Both the position numbers and the translations under genes were made by a program. The notes under the pieces were generated by a model. The model was not told the DNA's origin, did not search any database, and was given only the letters and a program-made list of their open reading frames with translations. From Squalus acanthias (lineage: Eukaryota), in the NCBI GenBank assembly GCA_030390025.1, contig JASTWF010000034.1:5146001-5210000 (forward strand): 64,000 nt of DNA, in the 5' to 3' direction. This document shows, piece by piece, positions 33,446 through 58,507 of the stretch. How positions within the stretch are numbered: position 1 is the stretch's first letter; each line of letters begins with the position of its first letter.

Positions 33446-34417
33446 CAATGCAGCCGCAGGTTTATTTTTCAACCACTGTCTGTGACTCGCACGCGGCCGC
33501 ATAAAGGGAAAAAAGCAGCACACGAGAGAAAAGGCGATTTGAATCCGTAAGTAGTGTCGAATTGCCTTAATTTGGCAGAACGCCATATGAAGCCGCAATT
33601 TGAATCAGACATTACACTTCATTTCAGTCTCAAAACCTGAAGCGATCACATACTGAAAACCGCAAGGAAATACAAAAGCACAAGTCCCGTGCGAGTCACT
33701 AAAAGGCTTTCAAACACAGCAAAGAAATCAGCTCGCGTCAAAGATTTTGTGATGAGACATTCATACCTCTAGCATTTGGCTGAAAACAAGAAATTGCAGG
33801 GGCTGCTCGCTTCTCGGCTGCTCGCTTCTCGGCCGGGGCGGCAGCGACAGGAACAAATCATCCGCTCACAAGCGAGTCCTCCAACCTGCTGCAGCCGATT
33901 GTGACGGATTGGCTCATTCCTCAGGCCCTGATTGGACACTCAATGGGGGCGTTCTCGCGCCACTCTATGTGGTTGGTTGGTTGTTGTCACATGATCAGGG
34001 TGCGGGGGCGCTGCAAGTGAAGCTGAAGGGCGACAGCATTGCCCTCAAATAGTCCAGAGACCCGGACACCGCAACACCCGTGTTGGGAGGCTCAAATGGC
34101 TGCACAATGTCACAAGGACGCTCAGTATTACACCACCCACAATGGGACAGACACAGAATGAGACACAGAAAACCAGCAAGGGTATGTCAGGCCACACAAA
34201 GGGAAGGACAGAGAAAGACACTGAGGAAACTAGAGAGAGCGACACAAACAGACTGAATAAAATGAGGGACAGACAGAGACTGAGGGAAAGACCGAGACGG
34301 CGAGAGAAACAGAGAGGGAGATAGACAAACAGGGAAACGGAGAGTGAAATGAAGAGAGAGACCTGCATGAAGGTGCTTTCTGCTGTGTAAAGTTATTCCC
34401 TGTTGTGTAAAGGCCAA

Positions 34418-34450
34418 CAGCACCATCTGGTGGTGGAGAAGCGGCGCTGC
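34418..34450 (-). promoter_or_regulatory. CTCF-like binding motif (one per array unit)
   Basis: Minus strand GCAGCGCCgcttctccaCCACCAGATGGTGCTG resembles the CTCF core CCACCAGRKGGCGC plus the upstream TGCAGTNCC module; binding not shown. Confidence 0.55.
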
Positions 34451-35284
34451 TGGAATGCGTTGAGAGTAGGGGAAGGCCCAGGCTGCAACAAGTTTGCAGC
34501 ATTTGCAACTTATGTTGGTGCGAACAAAGTGATTTGTAAGTTCTGTTGCAGCTTTTTGTGTTTATTGAAAGAAGGAAGTTGCTGGAAGTAAAGCCTAAAG
34601 TGTGATAAAAATACCTGCCGCATTGAACCTGAAATTTACCACAATTATAAGTGGAGGGAATAATAGGGAAAATTTGCCGTCCTAATCACAAGTTCTTCAG
34701 AATAATGGCATGAAAAACACATCTGACTCTCATTCTGAACACAGACTCCAGCTCACCAAATGTTTATACAGAATGGATCTTCTCTTCCCGTTGTCTTAAT
34801 GTAACTTTCACTGTCTGGATAGGTTAGATTGCAAAAACATATTCGTGTTATATAAATCGGATTGTAGCAGAGGAGCAGATGGGAGGTGCTGTTCAAACGG
34901 TAAGTTTGTAAGTGCGAACGGGGAAACGACGGCGAGATGGTGTTTGCGAGAGTGACAGCAGTGGTGAGCGCGTTTGACAGATTGCAAGAAATGGAAGAAA
35001 CAAATATGTGAAAGTGGTGTACATCCGAATATGTGAGACGCAGCAGGTGTGGAGACGAGTGAGTGAACGGTCTGAATTCAGTTGGTTGGGTGACGGTGTT
35101 TGCCGTGTTCGGTGCTGGGTTCAGGCCAATTATGGAACCGTGGAAATTCTGCAAATCGTATCTGCCTGTCAATAACAACTGAAGGACAAAGGTGAAGAAG
35201 TGACATAATACTGAACAAAACAGGCCCACCTGCACGATTTTCTGCTGCTGACGAAGCGACGAAATTTGTGAATGCCGCAATATC

Positions 35285-35366
35285 TGGCAGCGGTGGGACT
35301 CGAACCCACGCCCCCGCAGCGACTGGAGCCTAAATCCAGCGCCTTAGACCGCTCGGCCACGCTACC
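35285..35366 (-). tRNA. TRNAL-UAG: tRNA-Leu(TAG), unit 1 (variable-arm and T-loop substitutions)
   Basis: GGTAGCGTGGCCGAGCGGTCTAAGGCGCTGGATTTAGGCTCCAG...GTTCGAGTCCCACCGCTGCCA, 82 nt. Confidence 0.9.
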
Positions 35367-35744
35367 ACATGAAGCAGCTGGGCTTCTGAAACTAGAAACT
35401 GGTGATTGAAATGTGGCTTGGTCTTGTAGAAACATTGGGGAAACAAAAGGAAATTGAATTCGTGAACGCCAATCTCTTTTCTGATGCAACCCACTAGATC
35501 TGTTGTTATTTCGGATTTCCAGCATCTGCAGTATTTTGCTATCAGATCAGAAGAAGCTGCGTGTTCACAGGGCAACACTAATAAATAGATGTTTGTTGGG
35601 CCACCGCCATTGTATATTTAATTCATAATTTATACCTGTTGTGTATTGCAAGCAGGACGTTGGTGCAAGTAAAGTGTGATAAAATTATGATGTGATTGTG
35701 TGTAGCAATACTGTTTTTATTGTTGTTGAAAATAACAATGCAAA

Positions 35745-35816
35745 TAGCAGAGGATGGTTTCGATCCATCGACCTCTGGGTTATGGGCCCAGCACGCTTCC
35801 GCTGCGCCACTCTGCT
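35745..35816 (-). tRNA. TRNAM-CAU: initiator tRNA-Met(CAT), unit 1, intact
   Basis: AGCAGAGTGGCGCAGCGGAAGCGTGCTGGGCCCATAACCCAGAGGTCGATGGATCGAAACCATCCTCTGCTA: A1:U72, three G:C anticodon pairs, ATCG T-loop; TTTT downstream. Confidence 0.96.
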
Positions 35817-55853: not shown

Positions 55854-55925
55854 TAGCAGAGGATGGTTTCGATCCATCGACCTCTGGGTTATGGGCCCAG
55901 CACGCTTCCGCTGCGCCACTCTGCT
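55854..55925 (-). tRNA. TRNAM-CAU: initiator tRNA-Met(CAT), unit 12, intact
   Basis: 72-nt canonical sequence. Confidence 0.96.
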
Positions 55926-57274
55926 GTCGGTTAGCAGTTCGCTCGAAGCAGGTTTTTAGGTTTCGATGTTCAGGGCTGTGTGTTAGCGAAATAAATTTCA
56001 GCATCCAGGATGTTTTGAAAGCGATAGCATGGCCCTCAAATAGCCCAGAGACCCGGACACCGCAACACCCGTGTTGGGAGGCTCAAATGGCTGCACAATG
56101 TCACAAGGACGCTCAGTATTACACCACCCACAATGGGACAGACACAGAATGAGACACAGAAAACCAGCAAGGGTATGTCAGGCCACACAAAGGGAAGGAC
56201 AGAGAAAGAGATTGAGGAAACTAGAGAGAGCGACACAAACAGACTGAATAAAATGAGGGACAGACAGAGACTGAGGGAAAGACCGAGACGGCGAGAGAAA
56301 CAGAGAGGGAGATAGACAAACAGGGAAACGGAGAGTGAAATGAAGAGAGAGACCTGCATGAAGGTGCTTTCTGCTGTGTAAAGTTTTTCCCTGTTGTGTA
56401 AAGGCCAACAGCACCATCTGGTGGTGGAGAAGCGGCGCTGCTGGAATGCGTTGAGAGTTGGGGAAGGCCCAGGCTGCAACAAGTTTGCAGCATTTGCAAC
56501 TTATTTTGGTGCGAACAAAGTGATTTTTAAGTTGTGTTGACAGCTTTTTGTGTTTATTGCAAGAAGGAAGTTGCTGGAAGTAAAGCCTAAAGTGTGATAA
56601 AAATACCTGCCGCATTGAGTCTGAAATTTACCACAATTATAAGTGGAGGGAACAATAGGGAATATTTGCCGTCCTAATCACAAGTTCTTCAGAATAGTGG
56701 CATGAAAAACACATCTGACTCTCATCCTGAACACAGAGTCCAGCTCACCAAATGTTTATACAGAATGGATCTTCTCTTCCCGTTGTCTTAATGTAACTTT
56801 CACTGTCTGGATAGGTTAGATTGAAAAAACATATTCGTGTTATATAAATCGGATTGTAGCAGAGGAGCAGATGGGAGGTGCTGTTCAAACGGTAAGTTTG
56901 TAAGGGCGAACGGGAAAACGACGGCGAGATGGTGTTTGCGAGAGTGACAGCAATGGTGAGCGTGTTTGACAGATTGCAAGAAATGGAAGAAACAAATATG
57001 TGAAAGTGGTGTACATCTGAATACGTGAGACGCAGCAGGTGTGGAGACGAGTGAGTGAACGGTCTGAATTCAGTTGGTTGGGTGACAGTGTTTGCCGTGT
57101 TCGGTGCTGGTTACGCCAATTATGGAACCGTGGAAATTCTGCAAATCGTATCTGCCTGTCAAGAACAACTGAAGGACAAAGGTGAAGAAGTGACATAATA
57201 CTGAACAAAACAGGCCCACCTGCACGATTTTCTGCTGCTGACGAAGCGACGAAATTTATGAATGCCGCAATATC

Positions 57275-57356
57275 TGGCAGCGGTGGGATTCGAACCCACG
57301 CCCCCGCAGAGACTGGAGCCTAAATCCAGCGCTTTCGACCGCTCGGCCACGCTACC
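57275..57356 (-). tRNA. TRNAL-UAG: tRNA-Leu(TAG), unit 13 (same D-arm variant as unit 6)
   Basis: Plus strand CAGCGCTTTCGACC. Confidence 0.82.
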
Positions 57357-57686
57357 ACATGAAGCAGCTTGGCTTCTGAAACTAGAAACTGGTGATTGAA
57401 ATGTGGCTTGGTCTTGTAAAAACATAGGGGAAACAAAAGGAAATTGAATTCGTGAACGACAATCTCTTTTCTGATGCAACCCACTAGATCAGAAGAAGCT
57501 GCCTGTTCACAGGGCAACACTAATAAATAGATGTGTGTTGGGCCACCGCCATTGTATATTTAATTCATAATTTATACCTGTTGTGTATTGCAAGCAGGAC
57601 GTTGGTGCAAGTAAAGTGTGATAAAATGATGATGTGATTGTGGGTAGCAACACTGTTTTTATTGTTGTTGCAAATAACAATGCAAA

Positions 57687-57758
57687 TAGCAGAGGATGGT
57701 TTCGATCCATCGACCTCTGGGTTATGGGCCCAGCACGCTTCCGCTGCGCCACTCAGCA
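57687..57758 (-). tRNA. TRNAM-CAU: initiator tRNA-Met variant, unit 13 (11-bp deletion; T3 terminator)
   Basis: Junction CCACTC|AGCAATT; flank TGCAAATAAC. Confidence 0.78.
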
Positions 57759-58507
57759 ATTCGCGCGACGCAGGTTTTTATGTTTCGATGTCCCACAGGG
57801 CTGTGTGTTAGCGAAATAAATTTCAGCATCCAGGATGTTTTGAAAGCGATAGCATGGCCCTCAAATAGCCCAGAGACCCGGACACCGCAACAACCGTGTT
57901 GGGAGGCTCAAATGGCTGCACAATGTCACAAGGACGCTCAGTATTACACCACCCACAATGGGACAGACACAGAATGAGACACAGAAAACCAGCAAGGGTA
58001 TGTCAGGCCACACAAAGGGAAGGACAGAGAAAGACATTGAGGAAACTAGAGAGAGCGACACAAACAGACTGAATAAAATGAGGGACAGACAGAGACTGAG
58101 GGAAAGACCGAGACGGCGAGAGAAACAGAGAGGGAGATAGACAAACAGGGAAACGGAGAGTGAAATGAAGAGAGAGACCTGCATGAAGGTGCTTTCTGCT
58201 GTGTAAAGTTTTTCCCTGTTGTGTAAAGGCCAACAGCACCATCTGGTGGTGGAGAAGCGGCGCTGCTGGAATGCGTTGAGAGTTGGGGAAGGCCCAGGCT
58301 GCAACAAGTTTGCAGCATTTGCAACTTATTTTGGTGCGAACAAAGTGATTTTTAAGTTGTGTTGCAGCTTTTTGTGTTTATTGCAAGAAGGAAGTTGCTG
58401 GAAGTAAAGCCTAAAGTGTGATAAAAATACCTGCCGCATTGAGTCTGAAATTTACCACAATTATAAGTGGAGGGAACAATAGGGAATATTTGCCGTCCTA
58501 ATCACAA

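Follow-up and report, generated by a model that had tools for sequence, protein, structure and literature searches.

Repeated units that carry tRNA genes are known from mammals, fish and frogs. The human tRNA VNTR at 1q23.3 is present in 9–43 copies per allele and has a 7.3-kb GC-rich unit with Leu, Gly, Glu, Gly and Asp genes on both strands (Darrow and Chadwick 2014, PMC4041453). The available part of that report also describes transcription of the repeat in cultured cell lines, and human–mouse conservation confined to a single CTCF site besides the tRNA genes (PMC4041453). In zebrafish, the isodecoders of the egg and early embryo come from repetitive clusters and the later, somatic isodecoders from isolated genes, according to the accessible portions of three studies (Breit 2020, 10.1101/869651; Rappol 2024, PMC11417395; Reimao-Pinto 2024, PMC11574265). 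The same portions report that the large tRNA clusters are almost fully CpG-methylated in embryos and that tRNA abundance is not predicted by gene copy number. Xenopus laevis has a 3.18-kb repeat with eight tRNA genes (Muller, Clarkson and Galas 1987) and oocyte-specific tRNA genes of Xenopus lie in repeat clusters, both as summarised in PMC1635290, which likewise mentions tRNA-Met clusters in salmon and brown trout (Perez 2000) and a reiterated rat tRNA cluster containing genes and pseudogenes (Rosen 1984). Elasmobranch genomes are unusually rich in tRNA loci, which occur in clusters, with more than 300 on a single stingray chromosome beside histone genes (Squalomix, 10.1101/2025.06.08.657570). 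The Squalomix main text, as far as available, gives tRNA counts and locations rather than repeat units, with 0 occurrences of "iMet" (10.1101/2025.06.08.657570), and within the available text of these sources nobody has shown the purpose of the abundance in sharks.

The array described here (34036..58507, minus strand) lies in a 64-kb window, the whole stretch of Squalus acanthias DNA that was analysed, and belongs to this known kind, the tRNA-gene macrosatellite or VNTR type; a unit of this design, with Leu(TAG) and initiator-Met (iMet) genes, was not found in the literature searched. As in the human 1q23.3 repeat and its mouse orthologue, so far as their source describes them, head-to-tail kilobase units of ~98% identity and fixed gene order combine tRNA genes with a CTCF motif in every unit (14/14). 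The 1q23.3 unit has five genes in that account and no iMet, whereas the unit here is 1.83 kb with two co-oriented genes, many of them broken, and CTCF binding and copy-number variation, which were measured at 1q23.3, are here predictions from sequence. The X. laevis repeat, tied to oocyte tRNA synthesis in the available summary, is likewise a tandem multi-tRNA unit, but has eight genes versus two here and belongs to a separate lineage. It reportedly contains initiator-Met genes, one of them inactive, plus a Leu gene, and the salmon tRNA-Met clusters are said to be laid out in tandem. With the maternal-type clusters of zebrafish the array shares many copies in a large, repetitive fish tRNA cluster within repeat-rich chromatin, proposed there as a source of egg tRNA; stage-specific expression was measured in zebrafish, whereas in the shark it is a prediction. 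The available zebrafish cluster descriptions mention neither a Leu(TAG)+iMet unit nor CTCF sites (10.1101/869651, PMC11417395, PMC11574265).

The array is composed of 13 full units, which start at 34036, 35921, 37747, 39584, 41421, 43258, 45095, 46921, 48747, 50575, 52384, 54193 and 56027, and a partial 14th unit of 656 bp that runs up to 58507. The full units are 1,809–1,885 bp long with a GC content of 45–46% and a mean identity of 98.5%, which confirms the head-to-tail array of near-identical ~1.83-kb units proposed in the earlier note. ARAGORN identified 13 genes each for Leu(TAG) and Met(CAT). All 26 lie on the minus strand, in agreement with the co-orientation described in the note, and the order of the two genes is constant across the 13 full units. 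The Rfam gathering score is passed by 25 of the 26, the exception being the unit 12 Leu gene. The noted gene spacing of ~330 bp, with 378 bp in unit 1, holds for that unit and for nine others (330 bp), but the remaining three measure 319, 322 and 329 bp. The array had also been called open-ended at the gap, and the partial unit does stop at a 500-N assembly gap (58508..59007) that hides the remainder; on the far side, however, there is a 52-bp satellite instead of further units, and the array therefore terminates within the gap. A 55-bp duplication within the unit, with one copy in the iMet trailer and the other in the spacer (76%), has no tRNA remnant adjoining it.

Within each tRNA gene lie an A box and a B box, and a T4 terminator follows. 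The Leu(TAG) genes of units 3 (38996..39077), 7 (46344..46425) and 8 (48170..48251) have the array consensus, in which every stem is paired, and the sole change in unit 4 (40833..40914) is in the variable arm. The unit 1 gene (35285..35366), with a variable-arm change and A59G, is probably functional, while those of unit 2 (37170..37251; G37A) and unit 5 (42670..42751; C48U) are doubtful. A D-stem pair is broken in units 6 (44507..44588) and 13 (57275..57356), and the B box carries A58G in units 10 (51807..51888) and 11 (53617..53698). The unit 9 gene (49997..50076) has two single-base deletions in G runs, which may be assembly errors, and the decayed gene of unit 12 (55443..55523) lies within a ~250-bp patch of clustered differences. 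Damage is counted in 6/13 Leu genes.

Eukaryotic initiator tRNA-Met is marked by a CAT anticodon, an anticodon stem closed by three G:C pairs, A54 and A60 in the T loop, and an A1:U72 pair. The first three features are present in 13/13 Met genes, which supports the initiator identity previously assigned to them, and a zebrafish anti-iMet northern probe matches all 13 exactly, which marks the intact copies as the ordinary type of vertebrates. Eight have the A1:U72 pair together with an acceptor stem that is paired throughout, those of units 1 (35745..35816), 2 (37571..37642), 3 (39408..39479), 4 (41245..41316), 5 (43082..43153), 6 (44919..44990), 9 (50399..50470) and 12 (55854..55925). The other five are pseudogenes that lack nucleotides 1–4. 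An 11-bp deletion removes these in unit 7 (46756..46827), breaking pairs 1:72 and 4:69, and recurs in unit 8 (48582..48653); in units 10 (52219..52290), 11 (54028..54099) and 13 (57687..57758) the first T4 terminator is gone too. The deletion leaves both promoter boxes untouched. The +13 terminator is present in 8/8 intact iMet units and missing in three of the five deletion units, through at least two separate changes. Gene counts thus overstate capacity, with 26/26 genes called by ARAGORN yet clear lesions in 11/26, and both genes are sound in just 3–5 of the 13 units. The special role in tuning initiator supply that had been suggested finds no support, because 5/13 iMet genes are broken and copy number does not predict abundance in zebrafish.

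The 13 units differ from one another by 3–65 substitutions (mean pairwise difference 1.5%), and no pair is identical. They are mosaics, with all four gametes present at 167 of 496 informative site pairs; this signal strengthens as the sites lie farther apart (r 0.25; 4 of 20,000 permutations). Neighbouring units resemble each other more (Mantel r 0.46; 3 of 20,000). The units have recombined with one another, and this signal makes copy-number variation between individuals likely. Multi-base deletions shared by units recur on different backgrounds. None of the 72 nt of the iMet gene is a substituted site, versus 123/1,837 overall (P 0.013 by Fisher's test; one of nine regions tested), and the Leu gene is no more conserved than the spacer (15/82 sites variable; 7/82 without unit 12), site counts that are non-independent since the units are related. 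Conversion with identical iMet genes elsewhere could also produce the iMet invariance. In the inner units, variation climbs five-fold approaching the genes: in units 3–11 and 13, 7.5% of sites vary within 50 bp of a gene versus 1.5% beyond 450 bp (34/730 versus 15/953, P 0.0002). The gradient was not found among units 1–3 (P 0.37). Transcription-associated mutagenesis is described in the literature as leaving raised variation next to tRNA genes, but the near-gene changes are not rich in the C>T/G>A class expected from that process (19/82). The CpG observed/expected ratio is 0.70 in the unit versus 0.39 and 0.52 in two stretches leftward, and CpG transitions are enriched just 2.6-fold. Together, the gradient and the retained CpG hint at germ-line transcription; conversion from diverged family members, starting at the genes, could be an alternative cause of the gradient.

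We consider it somewhat better than an even bet that the locus is a concertedly evolving tRNA-gene dosage array, under weak selection per copy and active in oocytes or the germ line. It would have originated when 1.83 kb of a pre-existing tRNA cluster, with iMet, Leu(TAG) and a putative CTCF site, was amplified head to tail, with unit similarity presumably maintained through unequal crossing-over and gene conversion. Each gene would be an independent RNA polymerase III unit, and Leu and iMet probably became paired through the chance of having been neighbours. A germ-line or oocyte tRNA source is plausible from the zebrafish and Xenopus analogies and from the indirect signs described above, the array being most likely open and transcribed there and largely shut in the soma. 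Because many copies would share the load, selection on each would be weak and broken alleles would drift through the array. The dosage reading is supported by the mosaics, the iMet invariance, the terminator retention, the gene-ward gradient and the retained CpG, and the zebrafish and Xenopus clusters and the tRNA richness of sharks count for it as well. Against it stand the damaged iMet (5/13) and Leu (6/13) genes, a Leu gene as variable as the spacer, the methylation of zebrafish clusters in embryos with copy number non-predictive, the lack of C>T/G>A enrichment near the genes and the missing gradient in units 1–3. The variable Leu gene, the small number of units with both genes sound (3–5 of 13) and the methylation of the zebrafish clusters would suit a silent satellite, amplified by recombination in satellite-rich heterochromatin with the tRNA genes as passengers that contribute hardly any tRNA, or none, in whatever tissue, and the window is indeed dense in satellites and CR1 LINE remains. 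This is unlikely, if with a real chance of being right: iMet has no substitutions, terminators are lost in dead alleles only, CpG and the gradient argue otherwise, the CTCF-like site is unchanged in all 14 units, and the unit sequence is nearly unchanged under eight organism labels (~99% identical), in a compared stretch that contains no tRNA gene. A bulk supply of iMet and Leu tRNA active in every tissue would fit the ordinary type of the intact iMet copies, the probe match and the transcription of the human repeat in cell lines, as far as its source goes; it is quite improbable given the many broken copies and the origin of zebrafish somatic isodecoders from isolated genes rather than clusters in the available reports. 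Artificial multiplication of a single unit, or of a few, by the assembler is largely refuted and its probability is very small. The array adjoins a gap, a few single-base indels resemble read errors, and none of the contigs listed bridges the left junction, but all units differ, the shared deletions lie on different backgrounds, one contig leads back past the unit start into the 5' flank of iMet, and each of the 16 listed public-run differences within unit 1 corresponds to an allele present among the 13 units. The tandem array noted earlier is thus genuine, its units distinct and mosaic and its alleles recurring in public runs.

A chromatin role bears directly on the candidate CTCF site, which lies ~480 bp upstream of iMet. 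In unit 1 the two-part CTCF-like site is predicted at 34419..34452 (minus strand), with the core at 34419–34433 and the upstream motif at 34443–34452; the cores of units 2–14 start at 36304, 38130, 39967, 41804, 43641, 45478, 47304, 49130, 50958, 52767, 54577, 56410 and 58235. The site is unchanged and in a single orientation in 14/14 units, and no further two-part site was found in the rest of the window allowing one mismatch. It was matched in 0 of 20,000 shuffles at a gap of 8–9 and in 3 of 20,000 at a gap of 5–10, with thresholds fixed post hoc, once the site had been seen, and a core consensus that we take to be the accepted one. CTCF sites with an upstream motif are a minority class linked to insulation, and the two-part binding mode is common to lamprey, chicken and human. 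Going by its motif, the site has a probable role in nucleosome positioning or in insulation of the individual units. On a scaffold-first reading, the row of CTCF and TFIIIC/polymerase III sites would be selected as a boundary or nuclear-positioning element, which we regard as unlikely; that this would let alleles persist which retain the two boxes yet yield no usable tRNA is similarly doubtful. The survival of both promoter boxes in the iMet deletion would fit, as would the human–mouse repeat, in which, by the available account, tRNA genes and one CTCF site alone are conserved. It is an equally tentative suggestion that an insulator-class site plus tRNA genes per unit is a jawed-vertebrate array design, common to cartilaginous fish, human and mouse, in which selection keeps the CTCF and TFIIIC scaffold, though such selection would explain the spread of the A1:U72-lacking, box-keeping iMet allele to 5/13 units. 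However, the invariant 72-bp stretch surrounding the site is just the third longest in the unit, and invariance therefore does not establish constraint on it; the Leu B box is damaged in units 10 and 11, and the window yielded no gene in need of a boundary, the neighbours being LINE remains and satellites.

Several other readings did not hold up or lacked support. The unit is not a tRNA-derived SINE, as complete cloverleaves with their own terminators occur in a tandem unit and window positions 1–34035, including the LINE tails there, hold no match to it. Orthology with the human/mouse 1q23.3 repeat finds no support, the unit having two genes (iMet, Leu) and a GC content of 45–46% in place of five genes in a GC-rich unit. 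Rfam at E values up to 5 returned only chance matches below threshold for a hidden third RNA in the spacer. A dicistronic iMet-Leu precursor was dismissed because several T4–T5 runs separate the genes, even where the first terminator is missing. Stop-free frames of 150–196 aa are unsupported as protein-coding, with indels of 7, 8 and 11 bp recurring, and there is no evidence for a functional Leu-iMet link via CUG initiation.

The dosage array favoured above illustrates how high tRNA counts may originate, through amplification of a small unit, mosaic homogenisation and drifting dead alleles. If it is oocyte-active, a maternal-type tRNA supply extends to cartilaginous fish, and if CTCF binds, the tRNA-plus-CTCF repeat design reaches beyond mammals. 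With deletion and terminator alleles as natural tags of single units, product and scaffold functions could be separated within one array and both questions are testable.

The left edge of the array is adjoined by a piece of a second multi-copy repeat family (32559..34020), which includes a CR1 tail fragment. This family carries a worn tRNA-Asn gene (32559–32632, minus strand) and a worn tRNA-Ser-like gene (32761–32842, plus strand).

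The tandem array of Leu(TAG) and initiator Met (iMet) tRNA genes claimed in the earlier note is present on the minus strand at 34036–58507. It is composed of 13 full head-to-tail units of 1,809–1,885 bp (U01–U13 from the left), beginning at 34,036, and its right end is open as described, a 656-bp partial unit halting at 58,507 before 500 N. Each full unit carries Met(CAT) and then Leu(TAG) on the minus strand. The gene spacing also holds, at 378 bp in unit 1 and 319–330 bp in the other full units; the larger value is due to 48 bp inserted between the two genes (35496–35550) in unit 1 only. 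Directly past the gap lies a 52-bp satellite (59008–64000), and the array therefore terminates within the gap. This satellite is 92% identical to that at 24396–26585 and inverted relative to it, flanking the array on either side in opposite orientations. Each unit also contains a 55-bp internal duplication of 76% identity between the spacer (34559–34610) and the iMet 3' trailer (35640–35687), which includes the second T4 run.

An artefact of assembly is a scarcely credible source of the array, as the units differ pairwise by 3–65 substitutions (mean 1.5%) and share multi-base deletions on differing backgrounds. All four gametes occur in 167 of 496 informative site pairs among the units, and adjacent units are more similar than distant ones (3/20,000 permutations), which also argues against an artefact; the four-gamete share rises with the distance between sites (4/20,000 permutations). 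Further evidence against it comes from four public sequencing runs: all 16 of the listed unit-1 differences with an alternative letter (40 of 79 differences being listed) are alleles found among the 13 units, and one contig of run X2, possibly the source sample, connects the beginning of the unit with the 5' flank of iMet, a head-to-tail join. At least half the words of the array spacer are present in 17 of 24 listed runs (11 coded studies; 8 organism labels, not necessarily species), with nine studies left after those of the two best-matching runs are dropped as possible sources. Long unit contigs of run X9 have depths of 536–7,073 alongside others at 25–88, which only hints at many unit copies because contig depth is not a copy number. 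In U12, 23 of 44 differences are packed in one 250-bp patch across the Leu gene (0/20,000 simulations), a pattern that looks like conversion by a decayed donor copy.

All 13 Met genes have an anticodon stem and T loop of the type that we take to define initiators, and all match a zebrafish anti-iMet probe exactly. Five of them (U07, U08, U10, U11, U13) have an 11-bp deletion of seven leader bases and nucleotides 1–4, the replacement bases disrupting pairs 1:72 and 4:69 (penalty ~6 kcal/mol) and both promoter boxes being retained. The T4 terminator at +13 is kept in 8/8 intact iMet genes and absent in three of the five deletion copies. The Leu gene has the consensus sequence in U03, U07 and U08; U04 differs by a variable-arm change alone and U01 by such a change together with A59G, and the gene is doubtful in U02 (G37A) and U05 (C48U). 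It is damaged in U06 and U13 (D stem), U10 and U11 (A58G), U09 (two single-base deletions that may be read errors) and U12; with the iMet deletions, both genes are therefore kept in 3–5 of the 13 units. Variable sites number 15/82 in Leu, or 7/82 without U12. Each gene has its own terminator, that of Leu being T4 at +65, and further T runs lie between the genes, so that Leu and iMet form separate transcription units. The array consensus Leu has a UGCG loop in its variable arm, where the common vertebrate Leu(TAG) has UUCG; if array-specific, this loop would mark array transcripts in tRNA sequencing.

A 15-letter match, with one mismatch, to what we take to be the CTCF core consensus is found once in each of the 14 units, counted as one event; the rest of the window has no such match, 0.59 being expected in 64 kb. 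Nine bases upstream, 7 of 10 positions agree with the upstream motif of PMC12885311. When one unit is shuffled 20,000 times, the core by itself turns up in 206 shuffles and the core with the upstream motif in 0 (gap 8–9) or 3 (gap 5–10), at thresholds chosen once the site was known. The site shares its strand with the next iMet and precedes that gene by 477–488 bp. The surrounding 52 bp are identical in 14/14 units, with longer invariant stretches elsewhere in the unit. Published work describes two-part CTCF binding as common to lamprey, chicken and human (PMC5504073) and as a mark of stronger insulators (PMC11417384, PMC12885311), and limits conservation of the human–mouse tRNA repeat to its genes and one CTCF site (PMC4041453). 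CTCF may organise each unit at the predicted site.

Indirect signs of activity are read from the sequence in the iMet invariance, near-gene variation and retained CpG. None of the 72 nt of iMet varies, the overall share of variable sites being 6.7% (P 0.013, uncorrected, nine regions). Without edge units U01 and U02 and patched U12, variable sites reach 7.5% at ≤50 bp from a gene versus 1.5% beyond 450 bp, and the near and far counts are 34/730 and 15/953 (P 0.0002); in all 13 units they are 63/730 and 45/953 (P 0.001), and among U01–U03 no gradient is found. Transcription-associated mutagenesis leaves raised variation beside tRNA genes, according to PMC13010820. To be inherited, such changes would have to arise in the germ line. 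Only 19/82 near-gene changes are C>T or G>A, which counts against this process, and a similar gradient could arise from conversion. The unit has a CpG observed/expected ratio of 0.70, compared with 0.39 and 0.52 in two stretches to the left, and CpG transitions (10/130 vs 21/709) show a 2.6-fold excess, below the roughly ten-fold of fully methylated DNA.

The reading that we favour, as somewhat more likely than not, is that the array arose when a short segment of a tRNA cluster was amplified, its units being homogenised through recombination and transcribed by polymerase III chiefly in the germ line; dead alleles would drift because the copies are redundant, and CTCF might organise the units. 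Array output would supplement egg tRNA stores, as proposed by comparison with zebrafish, whose gene clusters contribute to egg tRNA, and with the egg tRNA supply of Xenopus. The zebrafish evidence cuts both ways, its clusters being near-fully methylated in embryos, with copy number no predictor of tRNA abundance. A silent passenger satellite seems unlikely; an array serving first as a chromatin scaffold, to which the CTCF-like site is pertinent, is slightly less probable again, and a housekeeping array is highly improbable. Tandem repeats of tRNA genes are already on record from human, mouse, zebrafish, Xenopus, salmonids and rat, and tRNA expansion in sharks is reported by Squalomix (10.1101/2025.06.08.657570). 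The literature searched, covering few subscription papers, gave no description of the Leu(TAG)+iMet unit and no CTCF site within a fish tRNA repeat; the Squalomix supplements, outside that search, may list these loci.

At the left edge, four of the 24 runs were aligned to 32,850–35,280, and in 4/4 a contig covering the stretch left of 34,020 departs from the window there and continues with other letters, so that 32,850–34,020 is multi-copy and the window appears to display a junction of two tRNA-gene repeats. Worn tRNA-Asn and tRNA-Ser-like genes directly precede this stretch, and 32559–34020 is apparently a fragment of another high-copy tRNA-gene repeat, joined to the array via a few shared bases. 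None of the listed contigs in the four runs bridges the junction, an absence that proves nothing; U01 and U02 are evenly diverged from the remaining units (28 differences each), which fits a true array edge. By eye, 33830–34020 within the flank is a CpG-rich, promoter-like patch with what we take to be two CCAAT boxes (33908, 33931; minus strand), a GC box and words resembling an E-box and an E2F site; a histone or snRNA repeat here would be in keeping with the shark tRNA–histone clusters.

Further left, 19146–19400 (minus strand) encodes a short exon-like peptide twice, nearly in tandem, which presumably resembles exon 1 of GPR139-like orphan GPCR genes of sharks; a motif search found no second exon, and the peptide has no Pfam match. 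The left part of the window otherwise contains CR1-type LINE remains and satellites. The closest named relatives of a reverse-transcriptase frame there are from rays, sharks and chimaera (53–70%, most 62–70%), versus 42–53% for birds and turtles, and we accordingly regard the host as a cartilaginous fish; the top six matches, outside this named set, reach 73–74%. Blocks of a 47-bp satellite (28216–29044 and 31964–32423) flank one CR1 fragment, and the satellite unit is itself similar to a CR1 reverse-transcriptase coding stretch.
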